From NCBI GenBank assembly GCA_012401045.1, contig GCA_012401045.1_4704.1: 64,000 nucleotides of DNA; one strand, given 5' to 3'. Under the pieces are notes generated by a model. It saw only the letters and a program-made list of their open reading frames with translations, was not told the origin of the DNA and searched no databases. The translations under genes and the position numbers were made by a program. Shown one piece after another: positions 1,016-59,129 of this stretch. Source of the stretch: a phage. Each line of letters starts with the position of its first letter. Positions within the stretch are counted from its first letter, which is position 1.

Positions 1016-1480
1016 TTAAACCAAAGCTGCGATAACGTCGTTAACATTACGGCCTCGCAACTCTGCCGCTAAACGAATAACTTCATCCAGGGAACGGTTT
1101 GTACGAATCTTGGCCACTTTCCAATTTTCAGGATACTGTTCGAAGTTAAGCAACCAAGTCATTACCTTTGCTTGTTCCATACCGTTGAGTTTGATTGTCG
1201 TGCGCGGATTGGCTTTGAACCACTTCTTGCTCAGCTGCGCCATACGGCGAACAGGGTAAGCGTAAGCGCGAGTCCAGTCTTTGGACAGATTGTCGAGTAA
1301 TTCACAGTAGCTGCTGTCGTAGTCTTTATTGATACGACGTAATAACCAGTTGGCGGTCATCTGATAAAGTTTATCATCTTCACGTAACCGCATACCTGCT
1401 ACTGCTAAATAAATGATAAGACCTGCGCCCAGGATGAGAGACAGGATAAACAGAATTTGGGTTTCTTGTGCTAAAGTCAT
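1016..1480 (-). CDS. hypothetical membrane protein (154 aa)
   Basis: ORF track; N-terminal hydrophobic helix ILFILSLILGAGLIIYLAVAGM; followed by hairpin plus U-run. Confidence 0.55.
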   Translation of the reverse strand: MTLAQETQILFILSLILGAGLIIYLAVAGMRLREDDKLYQMTANWLLRRINKDYDSSYCELLDNLSKDWTRAYAYPVRRMAQLSKKWFKANPRTTIKLNGMEQAKVMTWLLNFEQYPENWKVAKIRTNRSLDEVIRLAAELRGRNVNDVIAALV

Positions 1481-1599
1481 TTTACTATCCTCGGATTTCG
1501 TTAGGATTTAATTTCCAATATAAGGGCAATGTGATATGCCTTATACAGTCGATTGATGTTGTACATCACTTAAGTAATATAGCCGTGAAAAATGTTGGA

Positions 1600-3133: not shown

Positions 3134-5359
3134 TTAGCAATGGTTGTTAGTTGCTTCTATTTCATCAAGATACGGTTCTACGTCATCGCCCTCCACGAAT
3201 TCGTTGAACCAACAGTCAATGGTAGAAATAACCGGCGACTGGTGTTCACATTTCTTAGATACCTTAAAAGGTACGTTATTATCCATCATACCGAGTTCGG
3301 GTCGAAAACGCCCGAAATGTTTCGCAGTCCAAATGTCTGGGACGATATGGTTGTTCATCGTAGTGTTCAGCATGAGTCGCTACCTCATACCCGCAGCTTT
3401 ACCTGCAGCTTCCGGTGTTACCGGAATGTCCAGAATATATCTTATCCATATTCCAAATGGAACGTAGGACTTCCGCGCTGGATCTCGCTTGAGACCACGT
3501 ATTCGTTGAACGTTCTCCTGAACGGAGCTTCGCTGCTGATCGAACATTGTCACGTACGGTAGGCATCCCCGAAGGGATTGTCATTGAAGCCGCGTACATC
3601 CGCTACCTTGTTTCTACCTTATCGGTTCCTCTTACGAGGCGTAGCAGCCTTAGCCCTTCCCAGCAATTCACGGAATCCAAGCTCTTCCTTTCGGAAGGCA
3701 GGGCCTATGATTAAGCGTCACCGTCGCTGTTTATCGACTATATCTTCATCCTCGTTGCGAGGAGTCTCCCGTTTTGGTCTGTGTTTAACAGAGCCTACTC
3801 TACTCGACATCGCGTCTTTCGATAGTCTGTGAGCACACATCTTAACAAACATTCGTGGATTCCTAAACAGGTGAATGTTCTTGTTGAGATGCTTCGCTGC
3901 GGATTATTCCCGTCCTACCTCTTTTACCGTACCCAGTTCATTACGCTGGCCCTCATCTATGTCACCACGATGAGTTGGTGTGTAGTCCGATTACAGAAAC
4001 TTCCCGTCAATTAGAGAGCTTTAACTACGTTCCTGTTACCAGAAACCCGACTCCGACGGCATCAATAAATCAACATAAGTTATTGATTTAATTGAAAAAA
4101 CTGAAGTCGGCATTATAACCTTTGAGGATCATCACGCTTAACCCGATGGTGTTATCCTGCGGATCGCGTTTAACCTTGGTGATTTCAAGACATTGGTTAC
4201 TGCTTCGGTCAAGTGATGGGTTTCGAACAAAGCCGCACACAATCCCATCGAACGGTGTATCAGCAATAAGCTCATCGTGCAGCTCGCTCATCATCGGATG
4301 ATAATTACGGACATGTTCCGCAACGAACGCACGCGCTGCTCTCGGTGAATAACCACGATGGAATAACTTGGATTGGATATGTTCTTTATTGGTTAAAGTA
4401 AATGGTGCGTATGGGAAATGCAGATGATAATAACGATGGTTCGCTGTTATCGAACTGATTACGGTACGCGTGGTGAATGGATGTAATGTACCTAATATGT
4501 TTTTACGTGTAATACCTTTCTTCTTACCGATGAACTCATCGAAAATCGCCGCGTGGTATTGCAGTAGCTTCAATTGCACTTTCGCCATCCAGTTTTCTTT
4601 CTTTCTGGCGCTCAAAGGTGTTGTTGGATGATAGATACTGTTCAACGTACCGATAGCATCGATCGCACCTTCCATTTTGCTATCCGCATAACGACCGGTT
4701 GGCGTATTCTCGATAACGAACATCATGGCCGCAGGAAAGCTGATATACTGACTGAAGAACTTATCACGATGGATACGGATGAATTCTCGTAGCGTGTCAA
4801 CTTTCTCCGTGTTCTTCGGTCCACGTAACGTCGGTCCTTTATACAAGATCTCCATGATGCGATCGAAGTTCTGTATAAAACTATTTACACCGCGACGTAT
4901 CCCGAATACATCGAATTGCTGCTCCAGATAGTTCTTGAGTTCGATGGGTCGTTTTACATTTGGACGGTAACTGGCATCAATGAGCCACGTCATCGTTTCA
5001 AAGCTTTTGATATTCAACTCGCTTGCCAGCACGAGATGGACCAACGGGTTAATGAACGCATCGATTCCTTCAGGAACACGCGCCCAAACCGTCGAACGAA
5101 TCTCCTGTTCTGCCGGGTAGGTCACAACCGTTTTACAGTTTGGACACACCGTGCCGAGTAGCTCACCACGATTGTAGAAACCACAACCACACTGTGGTGT
5201 GATATCCAGCGTATCGCTGGAGTAAACACGGGTGATAAAACTGTTTAATTTCTTCTTCTCTTCGACGACTTTTGTATCGTAATCATTCAACAAAATCGGC
5301 GTAAAAGGAAGTTCTGCGAGCTGTCTATCGAAACTCACGATATCGAGCATGATGGCCAT
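3134..5359 (-). CDS. RNA polymerase beta' subunit, N-terminal fragment (non-virion-type); coding sequence interrupted: exon 1 4104..5359, candidate micro-exon 3714..3726, exon 3 3134..3367 (spliced product about 500 aa)
   Basis: Exon 1 has zinc-ribbon CGCG...CPNC, RKNILG...TRTVIS and ends ...GYNADF (RpoC-like); downstream frame has HIVPDIW...GMMDNNVP; AGGAGA SD before ATG 5359. Confidence 0.7.
3368..3713 (-). ncRNA. group I intron B (candidate, ORF-less, about 346 nt)
   Basis: Minus-strand elements AAUUGCUGGGAAG (P), AUCAGCAGCGAAGC (Q), GUUCAGGAGAAC (R-like), AUAAGAUAUAUUCUGGAC (S); GAAA-capped hairpin; boundaries uncertain. Confidence 0.5.
3714..3726 (-). other. candidate 13-nt micro-exon CGACGGUGACGCU supplying (F)-D-G-D-A of the beta' catalytic loop
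   Basis: Lies between omega-G of intron A and the second intron; in frame with exon 1; P10 pairing CGACGG with guide CCGUCG. Confidence 0.45.
3727..4103 (-). ncRNA. group I intron A (ORF-less, about 377 nt)
   Basis: Minus-strand P AAUUGACGGGAAG, Q AAUCCGCAGC, R CACAGACUA, S AAGAUAUAGUC in canonical order; guide GGAGUCGG pairs exon end CCGACUU with U.G at splice site. Confidence 0.75.
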
Positions 5360-5401
5360 GGGGTATCTCCTACAAATGAAAAAGAACGTTAGGACGTATA
5401 A

Positions 5402-5425
5402 GGGAGGGAGGTTGCCCTCCCTCCC
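5402..5425 (-). terminator. terminator hairpin downstream of chimallin candidate
   Basis: Perfect 10-bp GGGAGGGAGG/CCTCCCTCCC stem with 4-nt loop; U-rich tail on minus strand. Confidence 0.55.
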
Positions 5426-5451
5426 GTCAGATTACATCGAACGTTCTTCCA

Positions 5452-7347
5452 TTAGAACAGATTGAATGCCCCACCCATGTTGTTAACGCCAACATTCGGA
5501 CGATCGCTACGTGCGTAGATGTTACCGGAGATGTTACCCAGACCACGAGCACGTGCTGCCATGTTACCACGAACAGCGGTACCTGCCAGATGCTGGATGT
5601 TCTCAGGACGGATGGTGAAGCCAGCATCAGCAGCGGCTTCGATCAGCGCCTGCAGTGCTAACGGATCGAAGTCGTAACGCATTGCCCAGCCGGTTTGTTC
5701 CCAGCTACCAGACAGAACACGATCGATGATTTCGTGACGAGCGACAACACGCTGAGACATCGTCATATCGGTACGGTCGAAGCTGTCTTCCCAAGCTTCT
5801 ACGGTATCCGGGTTAGTGATGTTCATCATGTACAGATCGTCCATATCACGAATATCGTGACGGTGACCATCCTGGTGGTTGTAGTGACCCAGCGGGATAC
5901 GGTTACCGGTAGCGTAGACCAGCGGTTGGCCGTATTGATATTTCTTGCTGAAGCAACCCAGGGTAACATCATCGAACGCACGGAAGAGGGCTTTGTAACC
6001 TTCGGAGATTTCACGGACTTCACCTTCAACTTTGCCCGTATAGATCTTCTCAGCCGCCGGGATCATACGCAGCAGCCAGCTGTACTCACCTTCTTCCGGT
6101 ACGTCGATAGAAATCAGCAGAGACGGATACAGTACCTGTTGCAGGAACTTGTAAATCTGCTCGTTGGTTTGAGTAGACAGATCCAGCGGTGCGGTAACTT
6201 CCGGATCCAGTACCATCGCCAGAGCACCCGGGTTATGCGGACCAATACCACGGGCAGCGTTGCTGATTAAAGACTGTGCCCACGCCATACCGCTGTTCAG
6301 CGTAGCGATGGTGCCAATCAGACCCAACACGAAAGTGTTCGGTGTGAACGCATCCAGCTCCAGCGGGTAAGCGCTGGTCATCACGTAACGCGGCTGGTAT
6401 TGTACAGTCGGCGGTACCGGATAACCGTTAACCAGAACAGGGCCTTGGTTGAAGGTCGGGTTCTGCGGGCTGTAAGTCAGGTCAATGTAACCGGTGGTGG
6501 CGACCAGACGCTGTTGACTATCGTAATCGCTCATCGCTTGACGGATGCGGTTAGAGATAGTTACAGTGATGTCAGAACGCACAGGGTTACCAACAATATC
6601 GCTGTCCTGCATACCGCTGGTGTTGTACTGAACGCTGCTGATTGGCTGATCGCTTGCCATCATGCCCAGGTTGAACTGCGGCAGACCCAGTTTATCACCG
6701 AGACGGATTTCGATCGCGGTTTGGATTGCGTTATCTGCAGCAGACAGCAGGGTGGTTGCCAGATGCGCAGATTCAGCGGTGATTTCATTGGTCACCACAG
6801 CCAGACCAGCGATACGAACAGTACCGTTAGACTTACCGCCAATAGCTGAGTACATTGCCGCCATGACTTCGTTGATGAACGTACCGTTCAGGTTATCAAC
6901 CCAGGTACGCGGTACCAGAATGTTACCATGCGGACCTTGTTCTTCACGACGCGGCAGCGGAGCCAGACCAGCAACCAGCGGAAGCACATAACCAAAGAAG
7001 TGGTTATGGTCACCAACTTTTGCACCACTCATAACGACCAGGGTCGGATACGGTACGCTGTACTGGTTCGGGTCAACCGCAACAAAGATGAAGTCGTTTT
7101 TGAACTGGGTATCTTCCAGATATTTCTCCATCAGACGACGGAGATTCAGTACCTGCTCGGAGCCAGTATTACGGCTAATACGACGGCTCAGTGTACGGTT
7201 GATCGTACGCATCGTATGAGTTACTTTAGGCTGGCCAGCAAAATCTGCAGCGGTTTCCAGCGCCTCATCAGCACGTTGTGCGGTGCGGGTTTCAGCTGCA
7301 CGAATTTCTACATTATCGTTACCGTTATTACGTACGTCTAAGCCCAT
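5452..7347 (-). CDS. chmA: putative phage-nucleus shell protein (chimallin-like), 631 aa
   Basis: Size and position immediately upstream of beta' gene as I recall for phiKZ gp54/gp55; strong SD AAGAGGAA; TATATTACCT promoter motif 73 nt upstream; no motif-level confirmation. Confidence 0.45.
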   Translation of the reverse strand: MGLDVRNNGNDNVEIRAAETRTAQRADEALETAADFAGQPKVTHTMRTINRTLSRRISRNTGSEQVLNLRRLMEKYLEDTQFKNDFIFVAVDPNQYSVPYPTLVVMSGAKVGDHNHFFGYVLPLVAGLAPLPRREEQGPHGNILVPRTWVDNLNGTFINEVMAAMYSAIGGKSNGTVRIAGLAVVTNEITAESAHLATTLLSAADNAIQTAIEIRLGDKLGLPQFNLGMMASDQPISSVQYNTSGMQDSDIVGNPVRSDITVTISNRIRQAMSDYDSQQRLVATTGYIDLTYSPQNPTFNQGPVLVNGYPVPPTVQYQPRYVMTSAYPLELDAFTPNTFVLGLIGTIATLNSGMAWAQSLISNAARGIGPHNPGALAMVLDPEVTAPLDLSTQTNEQIYKFLQQVLYPSLLISIDVPEEGEYSWLLRMIPAAEKIYTGKVEGEVREISEGYKALFRAFDDVTLGCFSKKYQYGQPLVYATGNRIPLGHYNHQDGHRHDIRDMDDLYMMNITNPDTVEAWEDSFDRTDMTMSQRVVARHEIIDRVLSGSWEQTGWAMRYDFDPLALQALIEAAADAGFTIRPENIQHLAGTAVRGNMAARARGLGNISGNIYARSDRPNVGVNNMGGAFNLF

Positions 7348-7416
7348 TTGGGATTCCTCTTTTCTTAAACTTTATTAAATGACGTCATTGAATCAGCTTC
7401 TACTCGCTCATTCACC

Positions 7417-7428
7417 TAGGTAATATAA
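7417..7428 (-). promoter_or_regulatory. candidate early promoter motif TTATATTACCTA
   Basis: Exact TATATTACCT also at 36381..36392 and 59085..59096, each 70-125 nt upstream of a minus-strand ATG. Confidence 0.5.
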
Positions 7429-7601
7429 CCCTGAAATTTTTTTCAATATTGGTGTAACCACATTGAACGATATAAACCCCTAGGCGAACGCTGCCGAGAA
7501 GCAACATTCTTTCTACATATAATCAGGATATGTCTGTAAACTTTTACTTCTCTTATTGAGAGTAAAGTCATATCCGTTTACTACCTTCTTACGGAGTTCG
7601 T

Positions 7602-8696
7602 ATGTTTCGTGTTTTAAATAACCTCCCGCGAACATCATCGGGTGTGCAGCCCGTCCCTCAGAAAGACTATCTAATACGCGAAGTTCAAAGAAACCTACAG
7701 ACAATCCAGAACCACTATCAAGGTTTTACCTTCGCGGTTCAGAGCGATCACATCCTTGCGTTACTGCTCGCACAGCTCCCTATGAGATACGACATCTCAG
7801 TACAAACTTACTACGATATGATTCTCGATCTTACTCCAGAATTGGGTAATCGTGTTAAGTTGACAACATCAAGATACGCGGGTAAGTTATTCGACGGTGC
7901 TTTCTATCCGGGATTGCACGAAGCTATTATCGCAACCGGTGAAAGTCGTCTTATTTCACGTGACGTTCTTGACAACTGGCGTAATTGGTCGCCGGTTAGA
8001 ATCGTGACACACCCATACGCAAATCTTCGTTACATTCCTCTTCACCGAAAGCAGGTTGAAGAAGGACGAGGTTTTGCGGTCATTATGGTTGATGTACCTT
8101 TATTAGCACTACAGTATCGAATGTGGTCTTTGGTCATGGGTCATAACGTCGACGGTAAATGGGTGGTTAAAGAACCGGTTACAAGCTTCCTTGCGAGTTT
8201 TCCGTTGGTCAACGCATTATATTCACACAACGATGTTGTTATACGCAATCGTTGTTTGTGGGTATCTCCGGCTAAGAATCCACTCAAATCACCAATTTAC
8301 GTTAACGACCTTGATAACGTATTCAGCCAAGTCGTTCTGTCCGTACAGCATCATTTATTACGAAGAAGACGAAGCTACACCGATATGCTTAAACAGATAC
8401 CGAGTTTATACGGGGATCAGTACCAAGCAACCCGAATGGGTTACACCGTCGATCTTCGACAAACCCGATGGGCAAGGGATCTGGGCTGTCTGTCGTTATG
8501 GCAACAACTCGTCACACTACAAAACGTATCTGAAAGCGTCGGGTTCAGCAGCCAGATCGATAACGACCTGTACCGTGCTGCCGACCGTAGTCTAAAAGAA
8601 GGTAACTGGGAGTCCTCTCCGTTACCTGGCGATTTAAGACGTGAAGTTATCGCACAGGTTGCCGACCTCTTAAAAATTCTTCCCGCTGGTGCATAA
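7602..8696 (+). CDS. hypothetical protein (364 aa)
   Basis: ORF track; ATG with ACGGAG SD; lone plus-strand gene ending at a bidirectional hairpin. Confidence 0.6.
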   Translation: MFRVLNNLPRTSSGVQPVPQKDYLIREVQRNLQTIQNHYQGFTFAVQSDHILALLLAQLPMRYDISVQTYYDMILDLTPELGNRVKLTTSRYAGKLFDGAFYPGLHEAIIATGESRLISRDVLDNWRNWSPVRIVTHPYANLRYIPLHRKQVEEGRGFAVIMVDVPLLALQYRMWSLVMGHNVDGKWVVKEPVTSFLASFPLVNALYSHNDVVIRNRCLWVSPAKNPLKSPIYVNDLDNVFSQVVLSVQHHLLRRRRSYTDMLKQIPSLYGDQYQATRMGYTVDLRQTRWARDLGCLSLWQQLVTLQNVSESVGFSSQIDNDLYRAADRSLKEGNWESSPLPGDLRREVIAQVADLLKILPAGA

Positions 8697-8715
8697 TAAC
8701 CTCCCTCCTCCCTTG

Positions 8716-8747
8716 CATCCTCCCAACCCGTAAGGGAAGGGAGGATG
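8716..8747. terminator. bidirectional terminator hairpin
   Basis: CATCCTCCC..CCC-GTAA-GGG..GGGAGGATG between convergent genes 7602..8696 and 8763..10916. Confidence 0.5.
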
Positions 8748-8762
8748 GGGTGGTGGGTTATG

Positions 8763-10916
8763 TTACTCTGCGGTTTCTTGCTTCGGTAAATAACTTGCTG
8801 CGATGTCTTGGGCTAACAATGTATTGTTTTTATTCGAGATGAAAATACCATAACTTTCCATTAACGCGTAATACGAACGCACGAGCGTAGAGATCAATCG
8901 ACGAATATCCATACCTTGAATAAAGATATCAGGAAGCCCGGAGGCTTCGATCACCGGTAATGGTATCGTTAAGTTGCTTATCGTTTTCTTATCGTTACGT
9001 ACAATCCAATCACGGAAACGTTGTTGTAACCCTTTATCCTCCCAGGAATCAATCCAATCGTTAAGAAGCGTTTTGTTCTTCGTCGCCAACGGCACACGAA
9101 CCCCAACATAGGGTGGTTCAGGGCAATGGCCGTACGATTGAGCAAACACCTCTTCCCACATATCGTAAGACTGTTTCGTTACTGCAACATGCGGTTTCAC
9201 TTTAACACGCGTTAAGAAATCAGGATCACCACGTTTCATAGACTCAACGATTTCGTTTTCTAACGAGATAATATCGTCAAGAACCAATCGAATGCTGATC
9301 TTCTCGTTACGTAACAGCTTATCCATGATACCACACATCATGCGTTCAACACGTTTGACGATCATTTTTGGTGCTGACGCATCACGCATAACCGGACCTT
9401 TCAATTCCAGCTTCGGTGGATTGATAGGAACCCCCTCACGCATGGTCATGTAACCGTAATAGTTTTTACCCATCGAGGTTAACGACAGAATCAAGAACAT
9501 ATATTCGTTCTTCATTTCCATCACGTACATATGCTCTTTCGCCACACCGATATTACCAGAACACATCGCCATCAGATGAACCGTAATCTGCGTAACCAGA
9601 TAGATAAGCGTGTTTGCTAAGCGCGTCGAAACTGGATTGATCTCCATATTTCCAAATCGCCACTGAACCCACTCCTGGCAGGTAAACACCGTCGAGTCGG
9701 TATCAGACAACACACCCACTTCACGGATTGCTGATGGGAAAGCATAAACACCAGCCGGTTGGTTCTCGGTACGCCAGAACGCCATAATCAAATCAGCATA
9801 GCTTTGAATACGCTGTAGCATTAATTTTGTCGTTGCTGCAGTAAGACGATAACCAAGCTCATTTCCTTTTTCTAGCGCTACGTAAATCGCTTCCCCATTC
9901 AAGAACTCCGTACATTGTGCTGTAATCCAAGCGACCGTGTTGTTATCCATGGAAGCAATAATGGCTTTAGCCTCTTCCATCGTTTCAACAGGTTCGGATG
10001 CCAGCTCGCATAACGAATCAAGAAAATCTCGAACAAATTCAGGATTAAGCTCACGTAACGAGTACAGGTTATTGCTGTACATGTAGCAGGCACGTTCCAA
10101 CGGTGTTAAACCAGTAATTAACTCCCGGATAGTCAGTTCTTTCTCTGGGTCGAAAGTATATCGATGCAAGCATTTCGATACGTTAGCCCAAACCTCTTCC
10201 GGCGTAGGGTAATGTAGTTTGTATTTTACCATTACCTGTTCAATGGCTTTACGATCGCTGTTGCGGACAATACTCACGATGTTTTCAATTGCGATATCAC
10301 AATCGTAATAATGGAAATTGCCCGCAAGGAAGCGTTCGTTGTTCGCATTGGCTGAACCTGAAGCACAGCGACACGTTGTCGTTAAACTTGGATGCGCAAT
10401 TGGATTATAAAAAGGGTTAAACTTGGACGCCTGGGTTCCTGACAAACTGTTGTTATCTAACTTGGTGTTGGTTTGTCGTTTATCGTGTAACTCAGCTTCA
10501 TCTTTACGTCCGTGTGCTTGCGCTATCGACATTTGTTTCTTTTGTTTCTTACGCAACTTACCGTTTTCAACCGCAAAGTCGCTTAGCACACTGGAACGTG
10601 TTTCACGTGGATAACAGTTAGCCCACACCGGCGTGATAATTAAATTATTTTCTTTAATATCATTGAAGTATTGGCTGAACTTGATGACTTCTTTTTCTCG
10701 ATTTCCTTCGGTGCGCTGTGTTAATACAAGGCAGTCGGGATCAACCATCCCGTATTTTCCACCAGGACGAACCGTATCAAGGACAAACTGCAACGCTTCC
10801 TGCTGTGATATCCCACGCATGCGCATTAAGAACAGGGTATAATCCTGTACCGCTTCTTTGGTCATATCCAACGTACGGCCATATCCGTTTTCATCGTAAA
10901 AGAACGGATTTTCCAT
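8763..10916 (-). CDS. hypothetical protein (717 aa)
   Basis: ORF track; ATG with GGAGGA SD; no motif recognised. Confidence 0.65.
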   Translation of the reverse strand: MENPFFYDENGYGRTLDMTKEAVQDYTLFLMRMRGISQQEALQFVLDTVRPGGKYGMVDPDCLVLTQRTEGNREKEVIKFSQYFNDIKENNLIITPVWANCYPRETRSSVLSDFAVENGKLRKKQKKQMSIAQAHGRKDEAELHDKRQTNTKLDNNSLSGTQASKFNPFYNPIAHPSLTTTCRCASGSANANNERFLAGNFHYYDCDIAIENIVSIVRNSDRKAIEQVMVKYKLHYPTPEEVWANVSKCLHRYTFDPEKELTIRELITGLTPLERACYMYSNNLYSLRELNPEFVRDFLDSLCELASEPVETMEEAKAIIASMDNNTVAWITAQCTEFLNGEAIYVALEKGNELGYRLTAATTKLMLQRIQSYADLIMAFWRTENQPAGVYAFPSAIREVGVLSDTDSTVFTCQEWVQWRFGNMEINPVSTRLANTLIYLVTQITVHLMAMCSGNIGVAKEHMYVMEMKNEYMFLILSLTSMGKNYYGYMTMREGVPINPPKLELKGPVMRDASAPKMIVKRVERMMCGIMDKLLRNEKISIRLVLDDIISLENEIVESMKRGDPDFLTRVKVKPHVAVTKQSYDMWEEVFAQSYGHCPEPPYVGVRVPLATKNKTLLNDWIDSWEDKGLQQRFRDWIVRNDKKTISNLTIPLPVIEASGLPDIFIQGMDIRRLISTLVRSYYALMESYGIFISNKNNTLLAQDIAASYLPKQETAE

Positions 10917-15304: not shown

Positions 15305-16285
15305 TTAGAAAAGCAAGAAACCGCTATTCTTCGCTTCCGCTACAGTTTCGTCACCAACTTTCGGTGCCTGTTGACGCGCGTTACGATGTTCGATGTAACG
15401 TTTCGCTTCGTCAGCGATTTGTTTGATAATACCCCCTAAACGATCGGTACTTAAAACAAACGACGTCGCTTCACGAATTGGGCTGCTTTCAGGCACAAAA
15501 CCATCGCAGCTGTAAATAGCGCTAACGCCCATGACTTTTGTCGCGTCTTTCGGATAAAGCGTACAGAAAGCAATCGGGCTATCGTTCTCTTTCGTCCAAT
15601 CGTATCCCATGAACGTATTCAGTTCGGTGATCGTTGGTTCCAAACCGGTAACACGTGGATGGTTTAAGAAGTTTTCCAGGTCGGCGCTGTCAAGACGACG
15701 GTTCTCGCCAGAAAACAGAACACAAAGCTGGCTAATAACAACCTGCACGTCCAGGTTGACATCCTGCTCCGATTTCCCATTTTCGCCATTCATGTGATAG
15801 CTAACAATCACTGGACGTTTCAACCCTTCTGCAGCCGCCATCAGTCCTTTGAAGGTGCGATCGGCGTTGATCGTTTGACGCTCATCATCGAACGAGGCAA
15901 CGATGCAACACACCACACGTTCACCACGTTCCAGCAGGTTAGCAACCAACGCAGGACCTGCAACAGAACCTGAACCACCGCTCAGACTAAAGACCACGAT
16001 ATTAAATTTACCTGGCGTATGCTTATTCAGAATACCCGGGATTTGTGAACAGATCAGTTCAGCGTTCTCATCACGCTTCTTACCAGAACCGTCTAACTCA
16101 CGACCGGCTGCATCTTTAAAGATGTAAATATGATCGTCACCCAGTGTGCTATCGCGTAGGTTAGCGCGGCTGGTATCGACATACGTCATGCTGTGTAATC
16201 CTTTCGCGACTTCGCCTTCAAATGCTGAGCCGATTTCGCCACCACAACCACCGACAGCCCAAATATGTACTTGGTTCTCTTGCAT
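15305..16285 (-). CDS. phuZ: tubulin/FtsZ-like protein, PhuZ homolog (326 aa)
   Basis: Gly-rich nucleotide-binding loops WAVGGCGGEIGSAF and SLSGGSGSVAGP (tubulin signature-like); size as I recall for phage PhuZ; TAGGAG SD. Confidence 0.7.
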   Translation of the reverse strand: MQENQVHIWAVGGCGGEIGSAFEGEVAKGLHSMTYVDTSRANLRDSTLGDDHIYIFKDAAGRELDGSGKKRDENAELICSQIPGILNKHTPGKFNIVVFSLSGGSGSVAGPALVANLLERGERVVCCIVASFDDERQTINADRTFKGLMAAAEGLKRPVIVSYHMNGENGKSEQDVNLDVQVVISQLCVLFSGENRRLDSADLENFLNHPRVTGLEPTITELNTFMGYDWTKENDSPIAFCTLYPKDATKVMGVSAIYSCDGFVPESSPIREATSFVLSTDRLGGIIKQIADEAKRYIEHRNARQQAPKVGDETVAEAKNSGFLLF

Positions 16286-35780: not shown

Positions 35781-36260
35781 TCAGTCTTTCAGCAGCTCAG
35801 CTGCATACGCACTGATGTTGTCGCGAATATGCTTAACCTGAGTTGTTGGGAAAGATTTCTTATACGCGGTGGTCAGGCGTCCGTAAACCTGTTTCTTCTC
35901 GTTAGAGCCGAAACCAACTTCAGCGCTACGTTGAACCGTTGCGGACACAACGTCTTTGCCCAGCGGCAGGGTTACAGAAACAACGTCAACCTGCTTGTTA
36001 TCCGCCATGAACTGCGCGCCAACGCGACCTACCGCCAGACCATGAGCCAGACCGATATCGGTGGTCAGTTTCTGTGCTTTTTCCAGGATTTCTTTTTCTT
36101 CCGGCGTTACCAGAGTACCCAGGAAATCACTGCCTAACTTCTGGCTACCAGATTCGTCCAGTTTAATACCAGCGGCGATTTTATCAGAAAGAGCCTGAAC
36201 TTCCGGACGTACGTTAGAAGTGGTTTCAGTCGCTACGGTGGTTTCTACAGCTTCAGACAT
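35781..36260 (-). CDS. hypothetical protein (159 aa), probably abundant early protein
   Basis: ORF track; TGGAG SD; TATATTACCT promoter motif about 124 nt upstream. Confidence 0.6.
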   Translation of the reverse strand: MSEAVETTVATETTSNVRPEVQALSDKIAAGIKLDESGSQKLGSDFLGTLVTPEEKEILEKAQKLTTDIGLAHGLAVGRVGAQFMADNKQVDVVSVTLPLGKDVVSATVQRSAEVGFGSNEKKQVYGRLTTAYKKSFPTTQVKHIRDNISAYAAELLKD

Positions 36261-36380: not shown

Positions 36381-36392
36381 TAGGTAATATAG
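36381..36392 (-). promoter_or_regulatory. candidate early promoter motif CTATATTACCTA
   Basis: Second copy of TATATTACCT, upstream of CDS 35781..36260. Confidence 0.5.
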
Positions 36393-36395
36393 ACC

Positions 36396-37196
36396 TCAAC
36401 TTTTTTCCAATAATGCTGCAACGTTCCGCGCGAAACGAATTACCTTGTAATTGCGGGTCTGTTTGATATCTTCTTCCCCATCACTGTCACCTTCAGACGG
36501 ATCTTCCCACATGAAGTCTTGTTCGTCCGCTTTCTGTAAGTAGCGGTATAACTGCACCATGCTGCGTGCGGTCGGAGAGATAGCGCGAAGCTCATCCAAT
36601 TCTTCATCCGTGAGCAGAACATGCGGTGAACGCAGTGGTTCCATTGTTGTATTACACAACAGACGAATCAGCAGATCGACGCACGGAATAACCGAACCTG
36701 GTGAGGCGATTTCTGGGTGTAATGTATAACCCCAATATACGGTGTTAAAATACGTCAAAACAGCAGGTAGTGACGGATGTTCCATCGCACGGCCAATTTG
36801 CTGTCTTACGATAGATGCACGATCGTTCAATACATCGAAAGTAATCTGCTGCGGTTCCATAACCGCAAGTGAAATACCGTATGCGTCAGCCACACCCAGG
36901 ATTTCATGAAGGGCCGAACGTTCTTCTTCGGTGGATATTGTCCCGATTGCCTTACGCCCTGCAAGGTCAATCAGCATCGGTGAAACAGCTTCTTTAACCG
37001 CATTAAAAGAAGCCTGGTAAGCGTGTTTGTGAATATACAGTGTCCACGCTAATGCGCGCTCAGCCGCATGAAGCAGATCGACATAAGACAGTTCTTGATG
37101 GCATGGGCCATACACACTCACAGCAAGCTTGGTGGCTTTCTCAGAGGCTTGCATAATAACATCTGGTGATTTAGGCATATCGCGTTCTTCTTGCAT
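36396..37196 (-). CDS. hypothetical protein (266 aa)
   Basis: ORF track; ATG with AGGAA SD. Confidence 0.6.
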   Translation of the reverse strand: MQEERDMPKSPDVIMQASEKATKLAVSVYGPCHQELSYVDLLHAAERALAWTLYIHKHAYQASFNAVKEAVSPMLIDLAGRKAIGTISTEEERSALHEILGVADAYGISLAVMEPQQITFDVLNDRASIVRQQIGRAMEHPSLPAVLTYFNTVYWGYTLHPEIASPGSVIPCVDLLIRLLCNTTMEPLRSPHVLLTDEELDELRAISPTARSMVQLYRYLQKADEQDFMWEDPSEGDSDGEEDIKQTRNYKVIRFARNVAALLEKS

Positions 37197-46018: not shown

Positions 46019-47707
46019 TTAGGCTCCACGAGGTCCCGTTAAGTTGCGTAATAGGAACGCAACCGTATCGTAACCAATATCGATGTTGAATTTATTTTTA
46101 CCACTTACCCAGAAAGCTCGCTTCTTGTGCGAGTTGGTAATTTCGTCAATAGCTTCCATGGAATAAAGAACGTTAACCGAGACCGTATCACCATCAAAGT
46201 CCCCACCAAGTCCGGCGAGGTATGGCGCAGGGACAATAGTCGTTTCTACGAACGAAGCATTAGGTAACCAGTCGGGGTATTCCCATGCGATAAATCGTTC
46301 ATCCGTTATTGGTTCCCAGTTACTATCCAGTTCGGTTTTCGGTTTTGCGGCGACGGTTGTACGTGCGTAACAGGTTAACGGGATAACGGATTGCATACCT
46401 GATACCGGATAACGTGTTACCATCGCAGCCAGGTTATTCCAGTACTTATATCCGGCAATATAGATAAGCTCGGTGTAAGTAATGGGGTGAACATCCGCGC
46501 CAGGTTTATTCAACATCTCCGGGGGTAATTCACTCATGCCACGGAATAACCGAAACGAATCGTTGTTCACATAGACGAGGCAAAGATATCGTCCATTGAC
46601 CATGATAGGCTCGTTACGCACGCCAGGATCGCTTAAGGTGTTCAGTAAACGTTCTATTCCGTCCCATGTTGTAAAGTCATCGATGGTGTCTGGATCAAGC
46701 GTGACGCGCTCACGTTCCATCGTTTCGGTATCAGTAAGTTCAACTTCTGTAACATCACGGACAAATATTTCCTGCAAAATACCGGTACGTAACGCATGTT
46801 GCGTTACTGGGAGAGCGGCTTTACTCATCTGGTATAACCCTAACTGAACCGCGGTACAGGAAGGCTGGTTAGGCGACCCTAATACCTCCGTTGTGGGGTT
46901 AATTGCCGAAATAACGTTACGGGTTGAGTTCCAAACGCGACGTGAACCAAACTTACCTTGGAAGATCCCTTTCTTACCCTGGAACATATCCAACAGTAAA
47001 GCGTAGATATCGTTGAATGTTCTCTGTAAGCTCCAGCGCTGGCCGTCGTAAACGGGATCGGAATAATCTTTTAATCCATCAGGGACGGTGTTAGAAATTG
47101 CAAGGAAACGACGATACAACTCCGTGATTTCTTGCTCGCTTTCATACCCACCTTCTTTTACTTCTATTTCACGTAAGCCTGCAGGCAATACCAGTAAGTG
47201 ACGGGTCATCGCTTTGAACATGTTCTCTTCGACAACTTTAATTCGTAGCTCTCGTTGAGCTGAACCCGTTGAAACGAACTTGATATCCGCGACGTGTTGT
47301 GCAAAGAACCCGTATCCTGTTTGTCCTGTTAATGCATCAGACGCAACGAAGTCGCGTTGTTCGGGATCCCACCGAGCGTACGCCTTCCCCGACATGATAT
47401 CGCCATAGAGGTGTTTTAATCGAATGAGACGGTCGTAAATGACAGGATGCAGGATTTCAACCTTGCATTCAATCACCGCAAATCGACGGTCTCGATCTTC
47501 ACTACCCGCACTACCAAAGATGGTGTAAGAATAGAAACCATCATCGTGGAAATTACCGGTGCTTGGGTCACGAATGCTCATGCTCGTGATCTTGGGGAGA
47601 AAACGTAACTGCTGTTTATCGAGGTGTAAAATACTAATATTAAACGGCTCTCTGACTTTAGCCATGGAGACACTCCTCTTTACCACCACCGGCTGCGGCG
47701 GTATCAT
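46019..47707 (-). CDS. RNA polymerase beta'-like subunit, N-terminal fragment (562 aa as tracked; alternative start ATG 47665 with AGAGGAG SD)
   Basis: LGGDFDGDTVSV catalytic-type motif about 55 aa from C-terminus; RFAVIECKVEILHPV near N-terminus; no zinc ribbon. Confidence 0.55.
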   Translation of the reverse strand: MIPPQPVVVKRSVSMAKVREPFNISILHLDKQQLRFLPKITSMSIRDPSTGNFHDDGFYSYTIFGSAGSEDRDRRFAVIECKVEILHPVIYDRLIRLKHLYGDIMSGKAYARWDPEQRDFVASDALTGQTGYGFFAQHVADIKFVSTGSAQRELRIKVVEENMFKAMTRHLLVLPAGLREIEVKEGGYESEQEITELYRRFLAISNTVPDGLKDYSDPVYDGQRWSLQRTFNDIYALLLDMFQGKKGIFQGKFGSRRVWNSTRNVISAINPTTEVLGSPNQPSCTAVQLGLYQMSKAALPVTQHALRTGILQEIFVRDVTEVELTDTETMERERVTLDPDTIDDFTTWDGIERLLNTLSDPGVRNEPIMVNGRYLCLVYVNNDSFRLFRGMSELPPEMLNKPGADVHPITYTELIYIAGYKYWNNLAAMVTRYPVSGMQSVIPLTCYARTTVAAKPKTELDSNWEPITDERFIAWEYPDWLPNASFVETTIVPAPYLAGLGGDFDGDTVSVNVLYSMEAIDEITNSHKKRAFWVSGKNKFNIDIGYDTVAFLLRNLTGPRGA

Positions 47708-47910: not shown

Positions 47911-50900
47911 ATGGTAGATAAAACCCGTGTTGAGGGTGATGATAATTGGGACAACTGGGATGAAGACTTCTCCCTGGATCTCGATTTTAACGAACCCAAA
48001 GACGATCGTAAACCGATAACACGCTTTGCGATAGGAGCGGTTAAAGGTGCTGCTGAGGATCTTACTTCCTACGAAAGAATGAAGGAGATCGCCAGAAACG
48101 CATTGCCTAAGGGCTACAGCGACGGTATGGATCTTATTGATTCCGCCGTCGGATCCACGAAGGAACTATACAATGAAGCCGTTCGTGACGTTCTTCCTAA
48201 GGTCCAAAGCTCAAAACGGTTAGCCGCACAACTGACCAAGAAATACCGTGCGAGCATGCCCGATTTCTCGAAGAAAATTCTTGAGCAATGGGAGCGAGAA
48301 GCCAAGGAAGAAGACGAACGTAAACAAGCTGAAGAAACCCTTCGTCAACGCATGGCGAGCGCGGGGGACGATGAGATCGCCCGCAAGGTTGCCGAGGCAT
48401 TAGGCGAATCAGCAAACCAAAGCGCGGATCAGTTCGCTGAACAGCAAGCGAAAGAGAGTATCCGTGACGATATCGCTGACAAACGGTACGCTGTAACCAA
48501 CAAACAAATGAGTGCGATGCAAGAAGGCGTCGCCAAGATGGTTGGTTTCAACAATGAATTCGCTGCACGCTACATGCGTAAAAGCCTGGAACTGAAATAT
48601 CGTTCCTTAGCGATTCAACGTGCAAGTTTTGATCAGCATAAAAAGTTAGCCGAAGTCTATATCGGTTTATTACAAAACATCCAGAAGAATACGGCTTTAC
48701 CTGATGCGGCTAAAGCAAAAATGTCGGAAGAATTCCGCCGTAGCGCGTACCAACGTTTCTTTGGTAATGCGTTAGATGCGATGAGTTCTTTCGAGAACCG
48801 TTTCTTTGCCGATGTTAAGAAAAACCTTGCCACCAACGCATTAGGTGCTTTAAAAGGCGTCGTGTCTGGCGCAAACGATGCGTTATACGGTTTAAACGAA
48901 GCACGTGACTCGATATCCATGATGGATGGGATGGGGTCAGATGGCGATATTAAGGAAATGCAAGGAAAGATGTTGGGTCAGTTCATTGGCTCAACTGTCG
49001 CACCATGGATGGCTAATAAAGGCAGGATGGCGTTACGCGATTTAGCAAAACGTCACCCCAATGCTAAATTCGCTAGCGCGTTAAAAGCCGTGGATCAAGG
49101 TGGTGAGGCTGCCGCTTACACAACGCGTAATCTCGGTAAACTGCTCCAGGAAGATATTCGTAAGAACGAATTCAATCTTAGCGATCCGTTTTACAAGCAA
49201 TTGTTACGCGGTGCAGGGCGTTGGGCGTTCAACATGGACAGCGGACGTAACTTCCGCGTGATGAACGACACCGCTGAAACACTGGCAGAGCAAACATCTT
49301 TCGACGGTTTAACCTACCGCAGCATCAACGAGGTTATTCCAGGCTTTCTTGCACGCATTCTGAAAAGCAGTGAAGGCATCCGCACCGGAAACAGCGATCC
49401 TGACTACGAGGTCTATGACGGCATCAGCGGGCAATTCGTGTCTCAGCGCACGCGTGAGCAAAGCGTCAACGACACGCTGTTTAACAAACGTTCATTTGGT
49501 TATTACGCCAGCCGTTTCAACGAGGTTATCTCGGTCATCGATCCCGATAAGCAATTATCGGAAAAAGCCAGGAAGGCACTGGCTAAACAGTTGGCACGAG
49601 ATAGCGACGCGAACATCGCATTCGACCCGGCTCGTTTTACGGATGAAAGCAACTTCGATCGTAGTATCGACCGTGACGCTATTAAGGAACTTTCCACGTA
49701 CTTTCGTGACCGTTACGGTATTCGTGACGATATCAACGATAAGGGGGAACGTCATCAGGTCATTGGAAACCGCGGGCAATATTACACGGAACGTAACCGA
49801 GCCGATCTTCGTTACGGTAATCTGAAATCTTTACAACCGGATATCCAGCGTAACCTTAACCTGCTGAAACGTACTGGTGACGTCCAATATCTGGAACGGA
49901 TCGGGATTGTAACGAGAAATAGCGACGGAAGTTACTCGGTTAATCACGATAGGTATTTCTCTGAAATCGATCGGTACATCGACCGGCCGGAGTACGCTGA
50001 CCGCGGCGATGTTAATACGCGATTAACCGCTCAGGAAACAAGAGCGCTGGCGCTGGGTTATCGTGACGCAAAACCATCAGCTGGTGACGTCCAAAATGTC
50101 GGCCTGCCGAACATCGGTCGTAAGGCTGCTGGAACAGTAACCGTTGATGAAAACATCGGCTACGATAAATGGTGGAACGACACAGGTGTTATCACCACAT
50201 CGCTTGAAGAACAGAATCGAGCGTGGCAAGAGCTTTATCTCGAGGCGTTGTCCGAAGCATCCGAACAACGTGTTGAAATGCTTGCGCTGCTGAAAGCCAT
50301 TTCTGAGAAAGACTGGTCTAATAACGTTTCGCTGGATGGTGAAGATGTACCTGAAGGTACAGCACCCATTTCATTTATCGATCGTGCCAAACAAAAACTC
50401 GGCGGACGCAACCTGTTTAAAGGCGGCCGCAATCTCCTCTGGAAAGGAATTAAAAATACCGCACGTTTAGGTGTTAAAGGCGCACGCTGGGGTGCAGAAC
50501 GCACGTTGGGTAGTTTGGTAAATTCTGGCCGACGCATTATCAATTTCAACCGCTTCGTGTTCGGCGCATTATCCAAGGTTGATCAGGTTCCGTTTGACAT
50601 TTACGTTAAAGGGGAATCCCAACCACGCATATTGGTTGCTAAACTTCGTCAGGGGTTATACTTCGATGAAGCGACAGGAAAAGCCGTAAAACGGATGAAG
50701 GATATCAAAGGCCCACTCGTTGATGCGGATGGAAACATCGTAATCAGCAACGAGGATATCGAGAAAGGGTTGGTCACTCGCGCTGGTCGTGCCTTTGAGA
50801 ATTCAGGACTTAAAGCATGGGCACGTGAAGGTCTTAATGGAATAACGACGGCATTAAGTCTCCCACGGATGTTAAAACGCGGTGCGGTTGAGATCTACAA

Positions 50901-57971: not shown

Positions 57972-58484
57972 TTAAACTTCTTCGTTTTCTGAACCTAATG
58001 ATTCAGCATCTGGATCGTCAACAGGAATGGTTGCATCAAAATACCGTTTCGTATGCGTGGTTGTATATCCTACGCTATCTGTGATGGAAATCGTAAACGT
58101 GACTTCCCTTGCACGGATTAAGCGTAGTTTATTCATGAAGTTACGGAACGGCATCGATCCCCGATTCAACTCCTTAATGACGTTTCCCCGAATACTGGAA
58201 ATGTCTTTATTCGTTTTATCAGGGTGTCGTTTCTTCACATCACGCATATGTCGGGTAATATACGAATTGAGCTGATTTGCGCCGATCCCTCTCTCCGTAT
58301 AAATCTGCAACAGGAACTCCGTAAGGAAATCCTGTCTACCCGTAGGCGTCCAGAAATTGTTACCGTGATTGTAGTTAGTCGCTCGTCCTCGATTGCTTTG
58401 AGGATTTTCATCATCGCTTTCATCACGACGCTTAAGCGGATTAATGCGTGCGCGGAAAGAGACTTCATTATATTTATTTGTCAT
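57972..58484 (-). CDS. hypothetical protein (about 170 aa; track start TTG 58529)
   Basis: ATG 58484 overlaps upstream stop (ATGA coupling). Confidence 0.5.
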   Translation of the reverse strand: MTNKYNEVSFRARINPLKRRDESDDENPQSNRGRATNYNHGNNFWTPTGRQDFLTEFLLQIYTERGIGANQLNSYITRHMRDVKKRHPDKTNKDISSIRGNVIKELNRGSMPFRNFMNKLRLIRAREVTFTISITDSVGYTTTHTKRYFDATIPVDDPDAESLGSENEEV

Positions 58485-58996
58485 AATACACCAGTGTACT
58501 GACTGAGTGCGAAGGTTAGGAGTTCGCAACAGTCTCTCGCTAGTTTCCTTGTTTTGCGTAATCCATAAGCCGCATCCAAATCGTCACGTTCCGCCAGCGC
58601 GTCTAACCACGTCGCAAGTATGCGTCCATACTCGATAACGTCACGCATGAGAACGTCGAACCGGATAACACGACCATCGGCATCAGCAAGCCAACGATTG
58701 AACGTGATTTGTGGTGCTAGTATTGCATATGTTCTCTCCTCTAATGCGATTATGTTTATGTTGCCTTCGTTATCGAACGCTTGATGCCAACGGCGAAGGT
58801 CAAGCATCAACGACTCAGCGTCCATATACCACAACGGTAAATACGTTTTACGTGCAACGCGTATATCGTAGATGTTGTGAACCCAGGACGTTGTTTTGTA
58901 AAGCAACAAGAGTTCGTTTAACCGTTGCCTATCATCTTGAAACGTCTTCCTTTTATAACGTTGGAACGCACGCCTCAAGAAAAAGCGATGTAACAT
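58481..58996 (-). CDS. hypothetical protein (171 aa)
   Basis: ORF track; ATG with AGGTGA SD; TATATTACCT promoter motif about 92 nt upstream. Confidence 0.6.
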   Translation of the reverse strand: MLHRFFLRRAFQRYKRKTFQDDRQRLNELLLLYKTTSWVHNIYDIRVARKTYLPLWYMDAESLMLDLRRWHQAFDNEGNINIIALEERTYAILAPQITFNRWLADADGRVIRFDVLMRDVIEYGRILATWLDALAERDDLDAAYGLRKTRKLARDCCELLTFALSQYTGVL

Positions 58997-59084: not shown

Positions 59085-59096
59085 AAGGTAATATAG
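59085..59096 (-). promoter_or_regulatory. candidate early promoter motif CTATATTACCTT
   Basis: Third copy of TATATTACCT, upstream of CDS 58481..58996. Confidence 0.5.
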
Positions 59097-59129
59097 TCCT
59101 GTTATTTTTTTCAATACGGAGAATGTAAA

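Follow-up and report, generated by a model that had tools for sequence, protein, structure and literature searches.

The chimallin gene of a Goslar-like Escherichia coli phage, its promoter-like motif and the neighbouring intron-split RNA polymerase gene

The phage DNA analysed here, a stretch of 64,000 nucleotides (the window), contains an open reading frame of 631 amino acids next to a gene for an RNA polymerase subunit. This locus raises the question which protein the reading frame encodes and how the protein is expressed. A preliminary description of the sequence had proposed chimallin (ChmA); it had placed the reading frame correctly but had not stated that it lies on the minus strand.

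5452..7347, minus strand: chmA, assigned to chimallin, the major phage-nucleus shell protein; 631 amino acids and stop (open reading frame list, translation, Pfam, PHROG and PDB match)

The reading frame starts with ATG, and its coordinates include the stop codon. It matches the Pfam family PF25677 (Chimallin_Phikzvirus) with 95.6 bits, the curated threshold being 27, and the match runs from residue 20 to residue 596 of the protein and over positions 11-592 of the 627 profile positions. PHROG 4795, "nuclear shell protein", was found with 4.8e-55. The solved chain of Goslar chimallin (PDB 7SQT/7SQU/7SQV) is identical to our protein at 625 of 631 residues from end to end (1422 bits), and further matches were obtained with PhuN of phiPA3 and with chimallin chains of the 201phi2-1/phiKZ type. 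RefSeq labels the gene in Goslar as nuclear shell protein. The profile search against ChmA and the comparison with the published protomer, both suggested in the preliminary description, were thus positive, the latter through the identity to the solved chain. Judged by sequence comparison, the reading frame codes for the chimallin of a Goslar-like E. coli chimallivirus with a probability of about 97%, a figure that includes the account of function and expression given below. Nothing speaks against this identification.

The six substitutions from the window protein to Goslar ChmA are Q81R, N84D, S167A, V177A, F455Y, and Q474L. Since no residue is exchanged before position 81 or after position 474, the tail segments (residues 1-80 and 475-631) are the same as in Goslar, and with them the docking segments NTS, CTS1, and CTS2 of lattice assembly. 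The two-domain core of the solved protomer was likewise recognised by sequence identity to PDB 7SQT and not by modelling. On the codon level 14 synonymous and six nonsynonymous differences were counted, and the resulting dN/dS of 0.14 indicates that purifying selection acts on chmA. The gene encodes a variant of Goslar ChmA with six substitutions; it is already known, and there is nothing new in the gene itself. Goslar ChmA is one of two chimallins for which high-resolution structures exist, and the reading frame marks the window as belonging to a nucleus-forming phage (Chimalliviridae).

We considered two alternatives for the identity of the protein. First, the reading frame could code for a virion structural protein of about this size, such as the major capsid protein. 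Its size and its location in a phage genome are all that favours this assignment, and none of the tools lent it any support. The preliminary description had regarded clear homology to another family such as major capsid as evidence against chimallin, and neither Pfam nor PHROGs returned a capsid family. Moreover, the major head protein of Goslar is encoded by a separate gene, gp041 (43439-45661), and the reading frame is 99% identical to a solved chimallin chain. A virion structural protein is therefore so improbable that it can practically be disregarded.

The second alternative follows from the structure of chimallin. The protomer has a two-domain core consisting of an N-terminal alpha/beta fold and a C-terminal fold resembling GCN5 acetyltransferases (PMC9365700). 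As the latter is closest to the toxin AtaT (PMC9365700), the protein could be a paralogue with the chimallin fold and another role, that is, an active GNAT acetyltransferase, a toxin, or a minor shell component. The acetyltransferase active-site residues have been reported to be absent from the C-terminal domain (PMC9365700), tblastn located chimallin at one place per record and hence in a single copy per phage genome, and the reading frame is orthologous to the characterised Goslar ChmA, which it resembles almost completely and whose genomic position it shares. We regard a paralogue as very improbable. On the basis of the Pfam and PHROG profiles, the identity to the solved chain, and the structural study (PMC9365700), both the capsid and the GNAT enzyme were rejected.

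For chimallin itself, architecture and self-assembly have been described in 201phi2-1 and Goslar (PMC9365700). The Goslar protein forms a shell around the phage DNA in infected cells (PMC9365700, PMC10541120), and upon knockdown of ChmA the infection stops at the early vesicle stage (PMC10541120). Because of the 99% identity we transfer the mechanism known for these chimallins to the window protein, whose ChmA variant, by analogy, would build the nucleus shell as Goslar ChmA does. The flexible tails NTS, CTS1, and CTS2 would dock on neighbouring protomers; the N-terminal tail would join four protomers to a tetramer, and the C-terminal tails would connect the tetramers to a flexible square lattice that is one protein thick. 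This lattice would surround the replicating phage DNA, keep out host nucleases, and separate transcription from translation.

The surroundings of the gene agree with such a phage. The window is 98.4% identical to Goslar at the nucleotide level, and the region gave no match to the complete E. coli RefSeq genomes. Two further genes of the chimallivirus core set are:

15305..16285, minus strand: PhuZ tubulin gene (full-length match to PHROG 4733 "tubulin PhuZ" with 2.9e-68; the Goslar annotation likewise gives PhuZ)
8763..10916, minus strand: divergent family B DNA polymerase (Pfam PF20286 divDNApol, 682 bits)

Genes of both the nonvirion and the virion RNA polymerase (nvRNAP and vRNAP) complete this set in the window. 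The PhuZ homologue mentioned in the preliminary description is thus present, 8 kb from chmA, and its suggestion of a nucleus-forming phage is borne out by chimallin, PhuZ, the divergent DNA polymerase, and the two RNA polymerases. Directly downstream of chmA, at a distance of 92 nt and on the same strand, an RNA polymerase reading frame (5359..4088, minus strand) carries the zinc-binding pattern of beta' subunits, C-x-C-x12-C-x2-C, in the sequence CGCGFYNRGELLGTVCPNC, as had been claimed. The order given there for phiKZ was also correct, the shell protein PHIKZ054 being followed by the RNA polymerase subunit PHIKZ055; chmA followed by beta'-N is kept in phiKZ, Erwinia phage RAY, and Klebsiella phage Eowyn. 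The S15 leader gave a weak match at 48642..48747, which with 24.2 bits is below the cut-off of 39.5 and was taken as chance.

With regard to the expression of chmA, two signals are situated upstream of the start codon.

7418..7447, minus strand: promoter-like motif ATTGAAAAAAATTTCAGGGTTATATTACCT with the core TATATTACCT at 7427..7418 and a conserved TGA at 7414..7412
7355..7360, minus strand: Shine-Dalgarno AGAGGA, 7 nt before the ATG (from the sequence)

The core had been reported 73 nt upstream of the gene. It is present, the distance being approximate: the 5' end is at -80 and the 3' end 70 nt before the ATG. Considered as a bare 8-mer, it could be a chance AT-rich string or the -10 element of a host sigma-70 promoter. 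It occurs six times in the window with 2.1 expected, and at least six copies were reached in 5 of 100 shuffles, which amounts to a weak enrichment that disappeared when one mismatch was allowed. The Goslar genome has 10 copies, and letter-shuffled 8-mers average 6.6. The extended 30-nt motif ATTGAAAAAAANNNNAGGNNTATATTACCT, in contrast, was found three times in the window with zero expected and is therefore more than chance. All 10 Goslar copies of the 8-mer are on the coding strand, and eight of them share a consensus of about 25 nt together with a TGA at a fixed distance of 5 nt downstream. As a second null model besides the shuffled 8-mers, a shuffled genome was scanned with a weight matrix; its maximum was 13.3 bits, whereas the Goslar genome yielded 12 sites with 26-45 bits. 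All 12 are located on the minus strand upstream of minus-strand genes, 11 in intergenic regions and one inside the annotated 62-aa gp047, and the chmA site is the fourth best. The versions of the motif named for these sites are TATATTAC or TACATTAC. Furthermore, the same 8-mer precedes chmA in four genera (at -80 in phiKZ, -77 in RAY, -137 in Eowyn, and -80 in the window), the phiKZ consensus having been tested directly on the DNA upstream of phiKZ gp54. A sigma-70-like -35/-10 pair was not found at the motif position. Taken together, chance or a host promoter element is an unlikely explanation of the motif.

For the string TATATTAC, the literature yielded irrelevant papers only. The early promoters of jumbo-phage vRNAPs are known to share an AT-rich element that is about 10 nt long, conserved, centred near -10, and over-represented on the coding strand upstream of early operons (PMC7598289), and the 12-site class is made up of AT-rich elements on the coding strand. 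The primary transcription start of PHIKZ054 carries the early-promoter motif according to dRNA-seq (PMC8244752), and the level of Goslar chmA mRNA is normal when only the early programme (vRNAP) runs (PMC10541120). The comparison with other phages therefore supports the early-promoter reading proposed in the preliminary description: the motif defines a promoter-like class in Goslar whose members are candidate early vRNAP promoters. As there are only 12 strong members in Goslar compared with 32 early promoters in phiKZ, the class may be a subclass. With its 12 sites, the candidate vRNAP promoters of Goslar are mapped in a form open to testing.

If the early promoter of AR9 (PMC5312081) is taken as a model for the geometry, transcription would start near G7413, and the 5' UTR of chmA would then be about 66 nt long. 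The TATATTAC-type promoter, some 70-80 nt ahead of chmA, would be used early by the injected virion RNA polymerase, and translation would proceed from an ordinary Shine-Dalgarno. The latter had been credited with belonging to the strongest translation signals in the window, but its duplex with the anti-Shine-Dalgarno (-6.0 kcal/mol) is average and ranks 28th among 53 reading frames. Consequently, high expression, if there is any, must come from transcription or from mRNA stability.

In the spacer between chmA and the beta' gene a further element was noticed.

5402..5425, minus strand: GC-rich hairpin GGGAGGGAGG-GCAA-CCUCCCUCCC in the 92-nt spacer

For the complete spacer (5360..5451) a folding energy of -40.7 kcal/mol was calculated. 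A simple terminator scan did not flag the hairpin because no U-run follows it directly. We consider this strong hairpin, which follows chmA and precedes the beta'-N gene of the nonvirion RNA polymerase, a candidate terminator or attenuator or a stabiliser of the 3' end.

The beta'-N gene is interrupted. From the comparisons described below it is composed of the following parts.

4104..5359, minus strand: nvRNAP beta'-N exon 1 (PHROG 2987 positions 1-419 of 478), ending AAT GCC GAC TT = N-A-D-F(2/3)
3727..4103, minus strand: predicted group I intron I1 of 377 nt, devoid of a homing endonuclease gene (match to the full model of Rfam RF00028 with 49.3 bits, E 3.3e-11)
3714..3726, minus strand: 13-nt micro-exon C GAC GGT GAC GCT, coding for (F)DGDA of the catalytic NADFDGD
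3359..3713, minus strand: predicted group I intron I2 of 355 nt (Rfam core match, 20.9 bits, E 0.011)
3134..3358, minus strand: nvRNAP beta'-N exon 3 (MNNHIVPD...NNHC and stop), within a 79-aa reading frame that is a "hypothetical protein" in Goslar

Read as a plain reading frame, exon 1 continues to NADFSFFN and a stop at 4088. At gathering thresholds, Rfam returned nothing for the whole window. The introns surfaced in E-value mode: with a gathering score of 50 for RF00028, I1 is just under the cut-off and I2 is also below it, whereas intron IX of the related sequence L097 reaches 55.8 bits. In I1, a U precedes the 5' splice site (position -1) and the last nucleotide is a G, and alleles lacking I1 read GAT TTC GAT GGT uninterrupted. 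For I2, the consensus fold of five copies comprises 96 pairs, 24 of them with compensatory double changes, and thus shows covariation. The micro-exon has no difference to Goslar in its 13 nt. The 3' boundary of I2 was set by the I2-free allele of the related sequences L094 and L095, which reads DFDGDA/MNNHIVPD (the slash marks the junction). An alternative 3' splice site at GGUAG/CGA, giving an exon 3 from 3379 and a product of 504 aa, is ruled out by this allele, and the apparently divergent beginning of this longer exon belongs to the intron. With the boundary 21 nt further downstream, exon 3 starts at 3358, the product has 497 aa, and an excess of seven residues compared with RAY and Eowyn is removed. 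The 79-aa reading frame covers positions 424-475 of the 478 positions of PHROG 2987 and can be aligned with the C-terminal ends of RAY gp223 and Eowyn RpoBC. Intron removal restores KGYNADFDGDA at all junctions in 10 sequences, and for I1 and I2 the junctions are confirmed by alleles that lack the intron; an exception to the U at -1 is intron IB in the sequence L006, which has a C.

The sequence evidence indicates that two predicted group I introns, with the 13-nt micro-exon between them, split the beta' gene inside the catalytic NADFDGD. The spliced beta'-N product is predicted to contain the sequence GYNADFDGDAMNNHIVPD. The Goslar labels are consequently misleading, as the 423-aa "RNA polymerase beta subunit" and the 79-aa "hypothetical protein" are predicted to form one beta'-N subunit of 497 aa.

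In 10 Goslar-like sequences, the NADFDGD region occurs in eight configurations of introns and homing endonucleases, and seven of the 10 (the window and six NCBI contigs) encode an identical chimallin protein. Five distinct insertion sites were found in the Goslar-like clade and a sixth one in phiKZ. Up to three introns are present with micro-exons of 11-15 nt in between, and the endonuclease genes are intact, broken, or absent, depending on the genome. In addition, the virion RNA polymerase gene carries an intron in Goslar and none in the window phage. A census of beta'-N genes in IMG/VR found 29 of 32 uninterrupted, a count that is biased and gives no frequency since intact NADFDGD was itself among the patterns scanned for. 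We see even odds that the 31 nt coding for KGYNADFDGDA, the catalytic loop of nvRNAP beta', are a hot spot of mobile group I introns and, together with the vRNAP alleles, a natural E. coli system for intron-endonuclease warfare among co-infecting nucleus-forming phages. If so, splicing across micro-exons could also be tested on this region. Goslar-like phages that are nearly identical yet differ in introns and endonucleases provide, in E. coli, a tractable counterpart of the PhiPA3/PhiKZ system of intron competition.

Among the named systems, Goslar ChmA (gp189 in PMC9365700; HOV27_gp246 in RefSeq) is closest, having likewise 631 aa and the same flanking genes. The promoter motif, the Shine-Dalgarno, and the upstream 113 nt of Goslar chmA are identical to the window, whereas the six substitutions, all conservative, lie in the two core domains. 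The chimallins of 201phi2-1 (gp105), phiKZ (gp54), and phiPA3 (gp53, PhuN) belong to the same Pfam family and have the same architecture, and their genes are also located directly upstream of nvRNAP beta'-N with a TATATTAC element upstream, at -80 in phiKZ; yet these proteins are only about 22-25% identical to the window ChmA over 60-85% of the length. CTS2 has been reported to be shorter in the Goslar-type chimallin and its contacts to differ (PMC9365700). E. coli AtaT and GNAT toxins acetylating tRNA share the GCN5-related acetyltransferase fold with the C-terminal domain of ChmA, and CTS1 of chimallin binds where the antitoxin AtaR binds AtaT; lacking the active-site residues, chimallin is in contrast to AtaT a lattice-forming structural protein and not an enzyme (PMC9365700).

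As for the introns, group I introns, some with HNH endonucleases, are known to interrupt RNA polymerase genes of chimalliviruses at conserved aspartates (PMC11620839). I1 of Goslar has a 1,065-bp HNH endonuclease insert, closed by a perfect 14-bp stem, directly before the terminal G, where the window has only ACA. PhiPA3 carries an intron in the vRNAP gene gp210, whereas the vRNAP gene of the window is free of introns; in phiKZ, the interruption of gp55 separates the N from the A of NADFDGD and contains the HNH gene gp56. Compared with PhiPA3 and phiKZ, the window has two introns in the same motif (three in some relatives), 11-26 nt apart, and its I1 is without an endonuclease gene.

The ORF of 631 aa, which the preliminary description had read as a chimallin gene, was found in the ORF list with an ATG start and lies on the minus strand, which that description had left unstated. 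The chimallin gene (chmA) and two further genes of its surroundings are:

5452..7347, minus strand: chmA, 631 aa
8763..10916: divergent family B DNA polymerase (682 bits)
15305..16285: PhuZ (PHROG 4733, 2.9e-68)

In profile searches the ORF matched Pfam PF25677 (Chimallin_Phikzvirus) over nearly its full length with 95.6 bits, the curated cut-off being 27 bits, and PHROG 4795 (nuclear shell protein) at 4.8e-55. Among the chains of solved structures, Goslar chimallin (PDB 7SQT/7SQU/7SQV) aligned end to end with six substitutions, so that an experimental structure exists for a 99%-identical protein; phiPA3 PhuN and the 201phi2-1 and phiKZ-type chimallins aligned more distantly. The DNA of window 4000-9000 is 98.4% identical to that of Escherichia phage vB_EcoM_Goslar, in which the corresponding gene bears the RefSeq name nuclear shell protein. 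The two chmA genes differ by 14 synonymous and 6 nonsynonymous codons (dN/dS 0.14). From window to Goslar the exchanges are Q81R, N84D, S167A, V177A, F455Y and Q474L; residues 1-80 and 475-631 do not differ, and the docking segments of both termini lie within them. Judged from sequence, the ORF is the orthologue of the already known Goslar ChmA, and the chimallin reading was borne out by both profiles and by the near-identical solved chain.

Given this near-identity, the published shell mechanism would carry over to the window protein. The chimallin core consists of two domains, the C-terminal one with a GNAT-like fold that lacks catalytic residues; protomers assemble into C4 tetramers through the NTS tail, and CTS1 and CTS2 connect the tetramers via flexible linkers to a square lattice one protein thick (PMC9365700). 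The architecture of Goslar chimallin is the same except that CTS2 is shorter (PMC9365700). When ChmA is knocked down, Goslar infection does not proceed beyond the early vesicle stage (PMC10541120).

The neighbourhood had also been described correctly. Besides the PhuZ homologue, correspondence with Goslar identified several RNA polymerase subunit genes in the window. One of them, an ORF of 423 aa (5359..4088, minus strand), starts 92 nt downstream of chmA; it matched PHROG 2987 (RNA polymerase beta subunit), and its sequence contains the zinc-binding pattern of beta', CGCGFYNRGELLGTVCPNC (CxCx12CxxC), as expected for the zinc-ribbon beta' gene claimed at this place. The phiKZ gene order given for comparison is right as well, PHIKZ054 being the shell protein and PHIKZ055 an RNA polymerase subunit. 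Erwinia phage RAY shows the same order (chimallin gp222, then gp223, 'nvRNAP beta' subunit 1'), and so does Klebsiella phage Eowyn. Elsewhere in the window, Rfam gave a weak S15 leader match (48642..48747, plus strand; 24.2 bits, E 0.031, gathering score 39.5), which lies inside a large tail-fibre-like ORF and is most likely due to chance.

On the minus strand the region upstream of chmA reads ...ATTGAAAAAAATTTCAGGGTTATATTACCTAGGTGAATG...(about 50 nt)...AAGAAAAGAGGAATCCCAA-ATG. Its Shine-Dalgarno sequence, AGAGGA, is situated 7 nt ahead of the ATG. When the 53 nonoverlapping ORFs of the window were ranked by anti-SD duplex energy, chmA came only 28th with -6.0 kcal/mol, and therefore the statement that no other gene of the window has stronger translation signals is unsupported. 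This was the one part of the preliminary observation that did not stand.

The sequence TATATTACCT is located at 7427..7418, with its 5' end at -80 and its 3' end 70 nt before the chmA ATG. The bare 8-mer TATATTAC is marginally enriched in the window (6 copies versus 2.1 expected) and not enriched there if one mismatch is allowed. All six copies lie on the coding strand, and three of them share a 30-nt motif for which no occurrence was expected in the window. Besides the chmA site, the following copies are present:

36382..36411, minus strand: chmA-type motif upstream of ORF 35781..36260
59086..59115, minus strand: chmA-type motif upstream of ORF 58481..58996
1574..1581: partial copy upstream of ORF 1016..1480

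In the whole Goslar genome the 8-mer occurs ten times, always on the minus strand. With a 30-nt weight matrix, 12 sites of 26-45 bits were found there, the maximum in shuffled genomes being 13.3; the chmA site ranks fourth among them. All 12 precede minus-strand genes and are themselves on that strand; 11 fall between genes and one within the annotated 62-aa gp047. Their consensus is tTTCAsGnyTAyATTACyTnnnTGA, with the core TATATTAC in eight members and TACATTAC in four. A σ70 scan gave nothing at the position of the chmA motif. The 8-mer also precedes chmA in phiKZ (at -80 within AATGAAAAAAATTTGAGATTTATATTAC, distance and A-run being as in the window), in RAY (at -77) and in Eowyn (at -137). 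According to dRNA-seq of phiKZ, the primary start site of PHIKZ054 transcription carries the early-promoter motif (PMC8244752). Early promoters of jumbo phages that encode RNA polymerases are AT-rich, about 10 nt long and centred near -10 (PMC7598289); those of AR9 follow the consensus AAATATATATTAT-(6N)-G(+1) (PMC5312081). Since this geometry equals that of TATATTAC-(5N)-TGA in the window, chmA transcription is predicted to start near G7413. Goslar chmA mRNA reaches its normal level while only the programme of the virion RNA polymerase (vRNAP) runs (PMC10541120). As a candidate early promoter, the chmA motif is well supported by comparison.

The 92-nt spacer between chmA and the beta' gene folds as a whole at -40.7 kcal/mol. 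It contains a hairpin, GGGAGGGAGG-GCAA-CCUCCCUCCC (5402..5425, minus strand), with a 10-bp all-GC/AU stem, which is not marked as a terminator in the Goslar annotation and may serve as terminator or stabiliser.

The adjacent gene, encoding the nvRNAP subunit beta'-N, is a moderately interesting by-product of the chimallin analysis. The 423-aa ORF, annotated in Goslar as 'RNA polymerase beta subunit', ends with ...GYNADFSFFN and a stop codon, so that the universal beta' catalytic motif NADFDGD is truncated, whereas intact homologues have 495-519 aa and continue NADFDGD(E/A)L...VLD.N.P.K.S...ST..W onward. It covers positions 1-419 of PHROG 2987; a 79-aa ORF (a hypothetical protein in Goslar) covers positions 424-475. 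Just downstream of the 423-aa ORF, Rfam in E-value mode found tandem group I intron cores at 3727..4094 (49.3 bits) and 3413..3723 (20.9 bits), the gathering score being 50, and the triplet coding for DGD lies between them. The gene model, with a predicted spliced product of 497 aa, is as follows:

5359..4104, minus strand: beta'-N exon 1, ending ...GAC TT
4103..3727, minus strand: intron I1, 377 nt, ending ...AAACAG
3726..3714, minus strand: micro-exon of 13 nt, C GAC GGT GAC GCT
3713..3359, minus strand: intron I2, 355 nt
3358..3134, minus strand: beta'-N exon 3, starting ATG AAC AAC CAT

Both introns have a U before the 5' splice site and a terminal G. A 3' splice site of I2 placed 21 nt upstream was rejected and the site moved accordingly, because two NCBI assemblies have an I2-free allele in which MNNHIVPD follows directly on DFDGDA. 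The common fold of five I2-family copies has 96 pairs, 24 of them with compensatory double changes. On these sequence data, beta'-N is split within NADFDGD by two putative group I introns.

An exact copy of the window chimallin protein is encoded by 12 contigs from NCBI genome assemblies, among them one of 238,589 nt. Six such contigs (L093-L098: GCA_043942905.1, GCA_958302915.1, GCA_958312855.1, GCA_010679085.1, GCA_961211615.1 and GCA_958401615.1) were compared with the window, Goslar and two Goslar-like IMG/VR genomes (L005, L006). The intron regions lie at about 9200-11050 in L004, L005 and L006 and at about 6250-9850 in L093-L098. Seven of these ten sequences (window and L093-L098) share an identical chimallin protein. 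Eight intron/endonuclease configurations were found among the ten, and none of the six contigs has that of the window.

Intron configurations of beta'-N in Goslar-like sequences
Window: I1 without endonuclease, I2
Goslar: I1 with HNH, I2
L098: I1 with an apparently broken HNH ORF (82 + 223 aa), I2
L005: I0, I1, I2
L093, L096: I0, I2
L006: IA, IB (I2 variant)
L094, L095: IA only
L097: I0 with a different HNH gene, IX (55.8 bits, above gathering), I2

The five insertion sites, AAA GGG T^AT AAT GCT^GAT^TT^C GAC GGT GAC GCT^ATG, all fall in the 31-nt stretch that codes for KGYNADFDGDA. A single sequence holds as many as three introns, with micro-exons of 11-15 nt between them, and removal of the introns restores KGYNADFDGDA in every configuration. 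Intron IB of L006 has C instead of U before the 5' splice site, the P1 pairing being kept as C-G. In Goslar, I1 contains an additional 1,065 bp (NC_048170 168217-169281) with an HNH endonuclease gene and its own Shine-Dalgarno sequence, closed by a perfect 14-bp stem directly before the terminal G. The window has just 'ACA' at this site (3728..3731), which makes its I1 a natural endonuclease-free allele of the same intron. Of 32 beta'-N homologues in an IMG/VR sample, which is biased, 29 have no interruption. Two more distant IMG/VR homologues are interrupted elsewhere: in one the ORF stops about 40 residues short of NADFDGD, and in the other ADFDGDEMNV is encoded about 840 nt farther downstream in a different frame. 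Both interruptions may represent additional introns.

RNA polymerase genes of chimalliviruses are already known to contain introns with HNH endonucleases. We found no account of introns arranged in tandem within NADFDGD around micro-exons of 11-15 nt, nor of rapid intron turnover among Goslar-like phages, which, with incomplete literature coverage, is absence of evidence only.

In phiKZ, gp55 is interrupted between N and A of NADFDGD, which makes a sixth site, and the HNH gene gp56 lies inside the interruption. The annotated gp55 (420 aa) ends ...LKAPN, followed by read-through (L007, NC_004629 45000-51500, positions 2924-5762). The sequence ADFDGDQLNLTL-MPDVY... is encoded after gp56, just upstream of gp56.1 and running into it, from which it follows that phiKZ gp55 is also interrupted. 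The purified subunit runs at 56 kDa (PMC4666361), which is consistent with a joined product. At the vRNAP catalytic motif the window differs from Goslar, whose record has an annotated group I intron with the endonuclease-like gp206, which resembles phiKZ ORF179 (211748-213798, 2,051 bp). The corresponding window gene is:

46019..47707, minus strand: vRNAP beta'-like gene, ORF of 562 aa, reading straight through ...LGGDFDGDTVSVNV...

It is continuous across GGDFDGDT (junction 46192/46200) and lacks the Goslar segment; the window is therefore intron-free at this motif. Such allele pairs have been studied with PhiPA3 gp210 and PhiKZ gp178 (PMC11620839).
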